Below, in pieces: positions 2,051 through 43,258 of a stretch of DNA of 64,000 bases. The stretch is from Escherichia coli (GTDB taxonomy: Bacteria; Pseudomonadota; Gammaproteobacteria; Enterobacterales; Enterobacteriaceae): the NCBI RefSeq assembly GCF_003334335.1, contig NZ_QOWQ01000021.1. One strand, given 5' to 3'. The translations under genes were made by a program, and so were the position numbers. The notes beneath the pieces are model-generated. The model was not told where the DNA came from. It ran no database searches and worked only from the letters and a program-made list of their open reading frames with translations. Every line of letters starts with the position of its first letter. Position 1 is the stretch's first letter.

Positions 2051-2082
2051 AAAAAAAGGCCCCTGTTGAAATTGCAGGGGCC
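2051..2082 (-). terminator. putative rho-independent terminator after cutC
   Basis: Inverted repeat ggcccctg...caggggcc preceded on the + strand by an A-run (T-run on the - strand), about 50 nt past the cutC stop. Confidence 0.55.
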
Positions 2083-2129
2083 TGGTACGAGCAAGCATCA
2101 TATTGGGCGACATGATGCAACGGTAAAAA

Positions 2130-2885
<756 letters not shown>

Positions 2886-5424: not shown

Positions 5425-5460
5425 AAGCCTGATCAGGGTTACCTGATCAGGCTTTTTTAT
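5425..5460 (+). terminator. rho-independent terminator of argS
   Basis: Perfect hairpin agcctgatcagg / cctgatcaggct followed by T6, about 20 nt after the argS stop. Confidence 0.8.
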
Positions 5461-5581
5461 TGCCATCTAAATGTATTCTGAAAATGGACATGCCATTGTT
5501 TTCTGACTGTTGGATAAGAGGCCAGAAGCGTAATATCCGGCCCCAGGGAAACGATAACGGTTGAATTTAAGGAATACCGCA

Positions 5582-16332: not shown

Positions 16333-16362
16333 TTATCGGCAAGAAGGGGGGAAACTTTATTG
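16333..16362 (-). promoter_or_regulatory. sigma-28 (FliA) class 3 promoter upstream of tar
   Basis: Reverse strand reads TAAAGTTT-N11-GCCGATAA, matching the sigma-28 consensus TAAA-N15-GCCGATAA, roughly 35-60 nt upstream of the tar start. Confidence 0.75.
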
Positions 16363-16445
16363 CTGATGCCACCCGCCGCGAAATTGAAATAAAAAACCCG
16401 ATGCGCAGATCATCGGGTTCATTTCAATTGAGGAAATCGGGAGAA

Positions 16446-21807: not shown

Positions 21808-22587
21808 TATTCCCACCCAGAATAACCAACTTTATTTTTATGCGGTTTCACCGCACCCCGTGATGTCGCCGGGAAGCCCCGGTAAAAAATAATTAGCATT
21901 AGAATAGTTGCGATAAGCTGCAATAAGCAGAACCACCTTTTTTGGTTTAATATGTCCTTACAAATAGAAATGGGTCTTTACACTTATCTAAGATTTTTCC
22001 TAAATCGACGCAACTGTACTCGTCACTACACGCACATACAACGGAGGGGGGCTGCGATTTTCAATAATGTGTGATGCAGATCACACAAAACACTCAATTA
22101 CTTAACATAAATGTATAAGTCATACTTTTGTTTTGGGTGTATTTCAATCTGTTAAAAAGTTTTTCGCTACGCTAGCAAGCAAAAATGAAACAGGAATAAT
22201 CGAAATGGGATGCTGCGCACAGTTAAAATAACTCACCGTAAATAATCATCTGCTATAAATAATCACTTTCATGCAATACCAGATAAGCTATTTTTAAACA
22301 GACACTTACCGCACAACAAACTAATTAAATACAAAGAAAGGCAACAATCAACTTAATGTTAATGAAATGTTTTACATATATTAACCACTTATTTAATGCG
22401 GAGAATCAGTACACTATTTTCTTATAATTACATTTGAAATTATATGATCACCGGGAGTGATTGATTAATTGTCTTTACTAATAATCAGACTAATATTTAC
22501 CTGTTTGACCGAGTTGGGATTGCGTCGTTTCTCCATTAGGAGTAAAGCTTTAATGTCACCTGAAGTTCACAGAATAAGGAACAGGTT
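21808..22587. promoter_or_regulatory. flhDC / uspC divergent control region (long AT-rich leader and promoter)
   Basis: About 780 bp AT-rich intergenic region upstream of flhD with no ORFs; individual binding sites not resolved. Confidence 0.6.
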
Positions 22588-29759: not shown

Positions 29760-30263
29760 ATGGCAACCGCTGGAATGCTTCTCAAACTCAACTCTCAAAT
29801 GAACCGCGAGTTTTACGCATCCAATCTCTACCTTCACCTGAGTAACTGGTGTTCTGAACAGAGTCTGAACGGCACCGCCACTTTCCTTCGCGCCCAGGCA
29901 CAGAGTAATGTGACCCAAATGATGCGCATGTTTAACTTTATGAAGAGTGTCGGCGCTACCCCCATCGTTAAAGCCATTGATGTTCCCGGTGAAAAACTGA
30001 ACTCTCTGGAAGAACTGTTCCAAAAAACGATGGAAGAATACGAGCAACGTTCAAGCACGCTGGCGCAGTTAGCCGATGAAGCGAAAGAACTGAATGATGA
30101 TTCAACCGTCAATTTCCTGCGCGATCTTGAAAAAGAACAGCAGCATGATGGCCTGTTGCTGCAAACCATTCTTGATGAAGTGCGCAGTGCGAAACTTGCG
30201 GGTATGTGCCCTGTGCAGACCGACCAACATGTTCTGAATGTCGTGTCACACCAGCTGCATTGA
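29760..30263 (+). CDS. ftnB: ferritin-like protein FtnB
   Basis: 167 aa [41 protein letters not shown]... Confidence 0.93.
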
Positions 30264-30341: not shown

Positions 30342-30593
30342 TTAATGGGATTCACCCTGTGGGGTAAACTTGAGTTCAATAAGCGCGATGGCTTTTTGGA
30401 TTGCCCGCATGGTGACCGGGTCTGCGGCGGCGGGATGGTTAGTAAAGTCGATATTCTTCAGCTGACTGGACATTTTTTCACGAACTTCAACGGGCGCGAT
30501 TACATCGAGAACATCCAGAATTTGTTTGATAACCAACTGGCAAGCAACCACATCAGAAACCAATTCCTGATCGGCATTCAGCGGCTGGGACAT
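30342..30593 (-). CDS. yecJ: YecJ (DUF2766 family)
   Basis: 83 aa [30 protein letters not shown]... in the conserved position after ftnB. Confidence 0.85.
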
Positions 30594-30680
30594 CGTAAAC
30601 TCCTGATAGCATTTTGAAAGCCGTTATAGTAGCGACTTCACATCTTCAGCGATAGTCACATCCACCGTCATCAGGACACA

Positions 30681-30706
30681 AAAAAACCTGCCGGAGCAGG
30701 TTTTTT
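30681..30706 (-). terminator. hairpin terminator downstream of azuC
   Basis: aaaaaacctgccggagcaggtttttt: stem cctgc/gcagg flanked by A-run and T-run, so it could act in both directions. Confidence 0.6.
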
Positions 30707-30707
30707 G

Positions 30708-30794
30708 TTATCGGAACATATTGCCTGGCGGTACGTCTTTGAACGTCTTGCAATAGTTATTGAACATACTTTTCAGGATTTTGCGCAGTTTCAT
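30708..30794 (-). CDS. azuC: small protein AzuC (28 aa)
   Basis: Reverse strand reads ATG AAA CTG CGC AAA ATC CTG AAA AGT ATG TTC AAT AAC TAT TGC AAG ACG TTC AAA GAC GTA CCG CCA GGC AAT ATG TTC CGA TAA = MKLRKILKSMFNNYCKTFKDVPPGNMFR; below the ORF-track length cutoff. Coordinates by manual count. Confidence 0.85.
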   Translation of the reverse strand: MKLRKILKSMFNNYCKTFKDVPPGNMFR

Positions 30795-31056
30795 CGCGGC
30801 ACTCCGACCATTTGTTATACAGGTGTTATTGTCTTTGCGCTTATAATATGACAACCATCACAAAAATCAATCTTTATGTGATACAAATCACATAAATACC
30901 CCTTTAATGTTATAAAAATGATAATCAAAAAACAGCCCCCCTATTTCTGACACCTACAGATGGCAAGAAATAGCGCCTGCCAGGCGTCTTTTCCGGCCAT
31001 TGTCGCAGCACTGTAACGCGTAAAATAGTGCTTTCTCTTACTCTTCTGGCTGGACC

Positions 31057-34649: not shown

Positions 34650-34704
34650 TGGTACCCGGAGCGGGACTTGAACCCGCACAGCGCGAACGCCGAGGGATTT
34701 TAAA
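34650..34704 (-). tRNA. leuZ: truncated tRNA-Leu (leuZ-type, anticodon UAA), 3-prime ~55 nt only; prophage attachment-site remnant
   Basis: tggtacccggagcgggacttgaacccgcacagcgcgaacgccgagggattttaaa is the reverse complement of the tRNA-Leu 3-prime end through the anticodon loop; identity stops there and the D-arm/acceptor 5-prime half is absent. Not an intact tRNA. Confidence 0.8.
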
Positions 34705-42585: not shown

Positions 42586-42765
42586 CAGAAACACCCCGCG
42601 TATGCAGACAATCACCAGTTGCCAGGTGATATTAATTCGCAACATTCTAACCACATCAGCACGCAACACAAAAACCGCTTGCCAGCGCTCGTCGTGTCGG
42701 GTTACATTTCCGCTGCACCTCATAAAACGGGTGCCGGGATTTCCACCCCGCTGACAAACGAAGCG

Positions 42766-42790
42766 CACAGCCGCGCCAGCGGTTTTTTTG
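42766..42790 (+). terminator. terminator-like hairpin plus T-run in non-coding gap
   Basis: ccgc-gcca-gcgg followed by ttttttt. Confidence 0.35.
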
Positions 42791-43258
42791 TGCGTACTGT
42801 ATCGCCACGTCTTTTTCGCGTCAGAATTATGGCGGGGCGTACAGGGCCGACTTCGGTCGGGCCGGTTTCTTCGTTTGCCGGTTGTGGAAACCCTGTACGT
42901 CTCGCCACCCTGAGTTTTCCACCTCTGGTTGGTGAGTTTTCAAAATTCACAAACGAAGAGGCCACACCATGGCAAACCGCAAGCAACAGCGCGCCCGCGC
43001 TGAGCGTCTTCACATCCACAGCGAAATCAACCGCAGACTTTTCCGCGCAACACGCGTCGCGCAAATCATGCATATCAACATGCTGCATGAGCGCACGCAC
43101 GCACTATCAAACCGTTACTGCGCTGCCGTCTTCAGCTATCTGGCCGAAGACCTGGCAGAACTGCAAAGCCTCATCAACCAGCACCGATAAACCACATCCG
43201 GAAGCTATCCCACACCTGCACGCGGGAGGCTTCCGCACATCTGTTACCGGAGGTTCTC

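Follow-up and report, generated by a model that had tools for sequence, protein, structure and literature searches.

On the reverse strand of the window, by which we mean the whole 64,000-nt stretch of Escherichia coli DNA that was analysed, the locus around positions 30342–30911 holds one short coding sequence, the RNA that carries it, the control elements of that RNA and a downstream gene:

30342–30593, minus strand: yecJ (DUF2766), downstream of azuC
30673–30836, minus strand: AzuCR (AzuR / IsrB / IS092) transcript, from the RefSeq annotation and PMC8915982
30680–30706, minus strand: intrinsic terminator, consisting of A6 (30706–30701), stem CCUGC (30700–30696), loop UCCG (30695–30692), stem GCAGG (30691–30687) and U7 (30686–30680)
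30708–30794, minus strand: azuC coding sequence, 28 codons plus a TAA stop, with its ATG at 30794
30721–30747, minus strand: best computed cadA pairing region, AzuCR nt 90–116 against cadA −17 to +9, inside the azuC ORF
30802–30805, minus strand: Shine-Dalgarno GGAG, 7 nt 5′ of the ATG, from the sequence and at least 95% conserved
30819–30825, minus strand: FnrS target CACCUGU in the 5′ UTR, 25–31 nt upstream of the ATG, from PMC8915982 and complementarity
30843–30870, minus strand: sigma-70 promoter from a promoter scan, −35 TTGATT (30870–30865), 16-nt spacer, −10 TATTAT (30848–30843)
30847–30862, no strand assigned: second CRP-type site, TGTGATGGTTGTCATA, with one mismatch, over the spacer and −10; from a pattern search, conserved
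30877–30892, no strand assigned: upstream CRP-type site, a perfect TGTGA-N6-TCACA palindrome from a pattern search, half-sites conserved
30895–30911, no strand assigned: published NarP repressor site region (K-12 1988060–1988076, PMC12266141), converted by the coordinate offset given below

An earlier note on this DNA had read the reverse strand of 30708–30794 as encoding the 28-aa protein AzuC, naming a mismatch on alignment to the E. coli azuC locus as what would speak against it, and we found this reading to be right. The sequence MKLRKILKSMFNNYCKTFKDVPPGNMFR, followed by the stop codon TAA at 30710–30708, is the exact reverse-strand translation of the interval and is 100% identical to K-12 AzuC, with no mismatch. 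Window positions 30435–31035 are identical over 601 bp to NC_000913.3 1987600–1988200 (E. coli K-12 MG1655); at the K-12-to-window coordinate offset of 1957165, RefSeq azuC (b4663, K-12 1987873–1987959) falls at 30708–30794 and the RefSeq ncRNA azuR (b4434, K-12 1987843–1988001) at 30678–30836 (159 nt). Against the NCBIfam equivalog NF033642 'stress_AzuC' the peptide scored 75.9 bits (cutoff 30, E 1.3e-21), with the match spanning profile positions 1–26 of 26. A 401-bp query (30600–31000) matched 5420 of the 5426 complete E. coli genomes, where the feature beneath the match in other complete genomes is 'azuC: stress response protein AzuC', and the protein accession WP_010723106.1 is common to the window locus and related genomes.

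For the protein search, the natural 48-aa ORF that contains the frame stood in as query for the 28-aa peptide. It matched 98 database proteins, all with precomputed Pfam PF28150 (PF28150.1), and those named by their source were mostly 'stress response protein AzuC'. The homologues came from Escherichia, Shigella, Citrobacter, Klebsiella and Raoultella, and further from Enterobacter, Leclercia, Buttiauxella, Pluralibacter and Cronobacter; an alignment of 20 of the 98 contained 18 invariant positions. A Pfam-A scan of the extended 48-aa ORF gave no match, and the Pfam-A copy used probably predates PF28150. No match labelled Salmonella appeared in the 48-aa ORF search, and neither Salmonella nor Klebsiella pneumoniae had a genome matching the AzuC N-terminal pattern in a scan of one genome per species, the only Klebsiella with AzuC in both the genome scan and the protein search being the K. 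oxytoca group. These missing matches could reflect either true absence or drift in residues 1–10.

The earlier note also held that the frame is invisible to the ORF track and that the length cutoff hides real small proteins, and both points were borne out: the frame is unlisted at the default cutoff of 60 aa, and yecV (14 aa) is a second such gene in the window. When the minimum was lowered to 20 aa, the azuC frame appeared only inside a 48-aa TTG-start ORF (30708–30854). We see next to no chance that this longer ORF, starting from the TTG at 30854, is the real product. The window does hold 21 further open codons in frame ahead of the ATG, and some gene callers give 40–48-aa versions. However, the published transcription start, at 30836, falls downstream of this TTG, which leaves the 28-aa ATG form as the real one. 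The in-frame open stretch 5′ of the ATG also varies among loci from 1 to 57 codons, with an in-frame stop no more than 11 codons upstream in 29 of 57 loci, and this variable extension with its frequent early stops marks the ATG at 30794 as the conserved start. Extension sequences are unrelated among genera, whereas a conserved GGAG stands directly 5′ of the ATG and was found in the commonest contexts upstream of it at homologous loci.

The coding evidence comes from a genome scan (GTDB, one genome for each species) in which the query, a degenerate DNA pattern covering AzuC residues 1–10 only, yielded 59 loci. In 56 of these the unconstrained residues 11–27 were also present, with the stop falling at codon 28 or 29; we rejected the other three (in Treponema, Doudnabacteria and Tatlockia), where those residues and the stop are absent, as chance matches. 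The frame is thus kept at 27–28 codons in 56 species of approximately 20 enterobacterial genera. Over codons 11–27, the variable sites at codon positions 1, 2 and 3 numbered 4, 6 and 16 of 17, and the pooled pN/pS in the AzuC frame was 0.15 with zero stops among 50 distinct homologous segments.

This pattern bears directly on the reading of the RNA as purely non-coding with an incidental 28-codon frame, which is given some colour by its first description as the sRNA candidate IS092/IsrB, by its action through base pairing and by the RefSeq ncRNA over the locus. Against it, frame, length, start codon and Shine-Dalgarno are retained in 56 species, the pN/pS is 0.15, third positions vary at 16 of 17 sites versus 4–6 of 17 for first and second positions, and a tagged protein, ribosome binding and a GlpD phenotype are on record in the literature (PMC8915982). 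The substitution pattern already refutes the non-coding reading, to which we attach a negligible probability. The azuC frame is under protein-level purifying selection, and the combination of K-12 identity and coding-type substitution across 56 other species takes it far beyond chance.

The opposite strand was a further candidate, with a 48-aa antisense ORF at 30705–30851 on the plus strand. Its frame is open in the window and, across the 51 nt tested, has no stop in any of the 50 distinct segments, an openness which is, however, expected opposite a conserved ORF. In the per-frame test the antisense frame behaves as non-coding, with a pN/pS of 3.4, since the wobble sites of AzuC fall on its first codon positions, and the remaining frames had stops or a pN/pS above 1 in the homologous segments. 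With no family or annotation in support, it is exceedingly improbable that the coding gene lies on the plus strand. We are close to certain that the 28-codon frame is azuC, carried on the dual-function RNA AzuCR, a characterised E. coli locus. As far as the sequence comparisons reach, no evidence contradicts the AzuC identification in this host strain, which is not K-12.

The AzuCR transcript begins at K-12 position 1988001 (window 30836) and is 164 nt long, which places its 3′ end at 30673 (Raina et al. 2022, PMC8915982); it was originally an sRNA candidate, IS092/IsrB (PMC8915982). The −10 element ends 7 nt upstream of this start, and the −35 and −10 hexamers are each at least 95% conserved among 57 sequences; in Fig. 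[quoted passage not shown] Published binding sites crowd the same region. The FNR site (K-12 1988039–1988058) and the PhoP site (1988046–1988063) from a 2025 study (PMC12266141) convert to window 30874–30898, where the upstream CRP-type site overlaps these FNR and PhoP repressor sites. AzuCR transcription is repressed by CRP (PMC8915982), and the second CRP-type site, judging by its position, fits repression via promoter occlusion. In the 57-sequence alignment the promoter, CRP sites, FnrS site, Shine-Dalgarno and terminator are approximately 80–95% conserved or better, with a sharp loss of conservation directly 3′ of the U-run. The whole-RNA fold of AzuCR is only slightly more stable than those of shuffled sequences (z −1.8), and Rfam 15 contains no family matching the RNA.

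The peptide has a net charge of +6 and a hydrophobic moment of 0.53–0.60 over residues 1–20, reached by 0.6–1% of shuffles for segments 1–20 and 2–19 and by 3.6% for 1–18. This predicted amphipathicity agrees with the published amphipathic-helix model for the N-terminal ~20 residues. The protein is located at the inner membrane and co-purifies with GlpD, and it increases dehydrogenase activity; the tagged protein has been detected, and ribosome binding and the GlpD phenotype have been shown (PMC8915982).

[quoted passage not shown] The cadA pairing is located near the cadA ribosome-binding site (PMC8915982), and the region predicted by our ungapped complementarity scan (dG −23.2 kcal/mol, equalled by 1 of 100 shuffles) fits the published description of the site. 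For galE, the top ungapped matches to AzuCR were no better than shuffles (4 of 100), and no site was singled out. [quoted passage not shown] At 7 bp, this short site was not ranked first by the ungapped complementarity scan. AzuCR is bound by both Hfq and ProQ and co-precipitates with ProQ; its level is lower in a proQ deletion, and its stability is ProQ-dependent (PMC8915982).

Taken as a mechanism, the sigma-70 promoter would start AzuCR at 30836, with two CRP-type sites and the FNR, PhoP and NarP sites overlapping the promoter, and the A6-hairpin-U7 intrinsic terminator would end it at ~30678. Acting as mRNA, AzuCR would be translated from GGAG-N7-ATG into a 28-residue, +6 peptide with a predicted N-terminal amphipathic helix, an amphipathic membrane peptide that would activate GlpD. 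Acting as regulatory RNA, it would repress cadA and galE by pairing through the intra-ORF stretch, in the case of cadA with the ribosome-binding region; since that stretch lies inside the ORF, translation and pairing compete. FnrS bound to the 5′ UTR CACCUGU would block AzuC synthesis anaerobically. To this model our analysis contributes the K-12 identity, the family, the selection, the cis elements, the cadA and FnrS complementarity and the amphipathicity; translation, membrane and GlpD binding, target repression and chaperone binding are taken from the literature only. The earlier note missed the dual-function RNA, and the locus is more than a small-protein gene.

The hairpin behind azuC had been described in that note as a bidirectional-looking terminator, and the description stands for the sequence, which is symmetric and folds on both strands; as to function, the analysis gave no sign of plus-strand termination. 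The element AAAAAA-CCTGC-TCCG-GCAGG-TTTTTTT (30706–30680) begins one base past the azuC stop. As minus-strand RNA it folds at −18.0 kcal/mol (z −5.3, 0 of 200 shuffles as good) and as plus-strand RNA at −14.3 kcal/mol (z −3.5, 1 of 200 shuffles as good). It was missed by a consensus terminator scan, probably through pairing of the A and U runs, and is revealed by direct folding. Stem, A-run and U-run are identical in 56 of 57 sequences with a variable loop, the single exception having another stem with both runs retained; the A-run moves with the hairpin even at loci where the hairpin is 15–20 nt farther from the stop codon, and A6, stem and U7 are more conserved than azuC synonymous sites.

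That the hairpin works as a terminator in both directions, also ending a plus-strand RNA (one resembling STnc370 at ~30648–30712, or an antisense to yecJ), we consider very unlikely. Besides folding well on both strands, with A-run and T-run each at least 95% conserved, the site has a weak Rfam STnc370 match on the plus strand (30648–30712, 33.4 bits, E 0.057) and a plus-strand promoter-like site at 30603–30630, approximately 50–80 nt upstream. The STnc370 score, however, is to be set against a gathering score of 54; the terminator alone is aligned, and the pairs of the 5′ hairpin are non-canonical. Promoter-like sites occur at chance frequency (2 found versus 1.8 expected), and the interval between hairpin and yecJ is poorly conserved, with no conserved plus-strand element before the hairpin. 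The gene yecJ is co-directional with azuC, the nearest plus-strand gene, ftnB, ends at 30263, 417 nt off, and the window annotation contains no converging plus-strand transcription unit ending at the hairpin. The A-rich 5′ flank also matches a published feature of ProQ-specific RNAs (PMC7367173), and ProQ is needed for the stability of AzuCR. Such a tract ahead of the terminator is a ProQ-specific RNA signature that disfavours Hfq (Stein et al. 2020, PMC7367173), and for the A-tract we would favour a ProQ-type terminator over bidirectional termination. Membership of Rfam RF02064 STnc370 was rejected, the match being below the gathering score and absent from the gathering-level scan, as was a sub-threshold match to Rfam rsmX, which is a terminator-only similarity.

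Downstream, azuC and yecJ are separated only by the terminator. In 53 of 56 species azuC is followed by a yecJ homologue of the same orientation, which usually begins 160–220 nt past the azuC ATG and 80–130 nt past the stop. The upstream neighbour is variable: yecR lies ~300 nt away in Escherichia and ~2.6 kb or more away elsewhere. The only loose threads at the locus are how tightly azuC and yecJ are linked and how unusually little the symmetric terminator varies. AzuCR and yecJ may form a conserved functional unit, or an unannotated plus-strand RNA might also end at the symmetric hairpin, a pair of ideas that we rate as unlikely. If true, read-through or ProQ- or Hfq-modulated termination at the hairpin could set yecJ expression. 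In the part of the text of the AzuCR paper available to us, yecJ is not mentioned, and neither the yecJ coupling nor the plus-strand RNA appears (PMC8915982). Between yecR and the azuC promoter there is also a terminator-like hairpin, CGCCTGGCAGGCG, with a weak T-tail at 30974–30986 (minus strand); it is probably a chance match, with 1 found against 0.9 expected and no obvious transcript.

Focusing on the wider window, the DNA is 99.2–99.4% identical to MG1655 from 776 to 34704 and is not from K-12. The K-12 IS1H upstream of flhD is absent, with the junction near 22106–22113. Adjoining the K-12 IS1H position is a perfect CRP palindrome, TGTGATGCAGATCACA, at 22070–22085, ~270 nt upstream of the flhD start codon; by its position it is probably the CRP site of the flhDC promoter. 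The match to K-12 breaks off within the leuZ tRNA gene, at 34704, and a P2-family prophage (34705–64000) lies directly after yecA, with genes for an integrase, a replication endonuclease, a portal, a terminase, a P2-type capsid and tail genes. ARAGORN found no intact tRNA in 33000–64000. At least 80% of the query 34400–59000 is matched in only 14 of 5426 complete E. coli genomes, at 98.4–98.5% identity. Other small genes and RNAs in the window were:

2051–2358, minus strand: MicL, Rfam 381.9 bits, inside cutC
5447–5491, minus strand: yecV, 14 aa, MSIFRIHLDGNKKA, an exact match to the K-12 annotation
16349–16426, plus strand: C0465, Rfam 111.6 bits, in the chemotaxis gene region
42715–42789, plus strand: isrK, Rfam 64.1 bits, in the prophage
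42825–42912, plus strand: C4 antisense RNA, Rfam 82.1 bits, in the prophage

MicL and C0465 are known E. coli sRNA families, and the side-by-side isrK and C4 antisense RNA are presumably the usual immunity RNA pair of P1/P7/P2-type phages. At 14 aa, yecV is too short even for the ORF listing at its 20-aa minimum, and yecU lies beyond the prophage, outside the window. A related strain carries the homologous prophage, in which PGAP annotates more coding sequences shorter than 60 aa.

The azuC/AzuCR locus is already known, with a RefSeq annotation and a detailed published mechanism, and nothing biologically new is claimed for it here. The case serves as a positive control, in which reading of the raw sequence recovered an experimentally validated 28-aa gene hidden by a 60-aa cutoff. 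The 56-species comparison, with its coding pattern, near-invariant A/U-flanked terminator and yecJ linkage, is a modest by-product and not a discovery.

Compared with known systems, the locus matches E. coli K-12 AzuC/AzuCR most closely: the 601 identical bp include the promoter, CRP sites, 5′ UTR, ORF and terminator, and the neighbours are the same, yecJ and yecR. There are zero differences from the K-12 azuC locus, although the host strain differs. Hemm et al. 2008/2010 are reportedly the reference for AzuC of E. coli K-12. RF02064 STnc370 has a terminator hairpin of nearly the same sequence as the azuC hairpin on the plus strand, whereas its 5′ hairpin is unsupported at the azuC locus, which is not a member. 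ProQ-type terminators (PMC7367173) resemble that of azuC in their short GC stem and in an adjoining 5′ A-run able to pair with the 3′ oligo-U; in contrast to these, AzuCR also binds Hfq, and the part of the A-tract in AzuCR is one that we infer. The SgrS/SgrT system is alike in that one transcript combines a small protein with base pairing in carbon metabolism (PMC8915982). In SgrS, however, coding and pairing belong to distinct regions with PtsG as their common target, whereas those of AzuCR overlap, compete and serve different pathways (PMC8915982).
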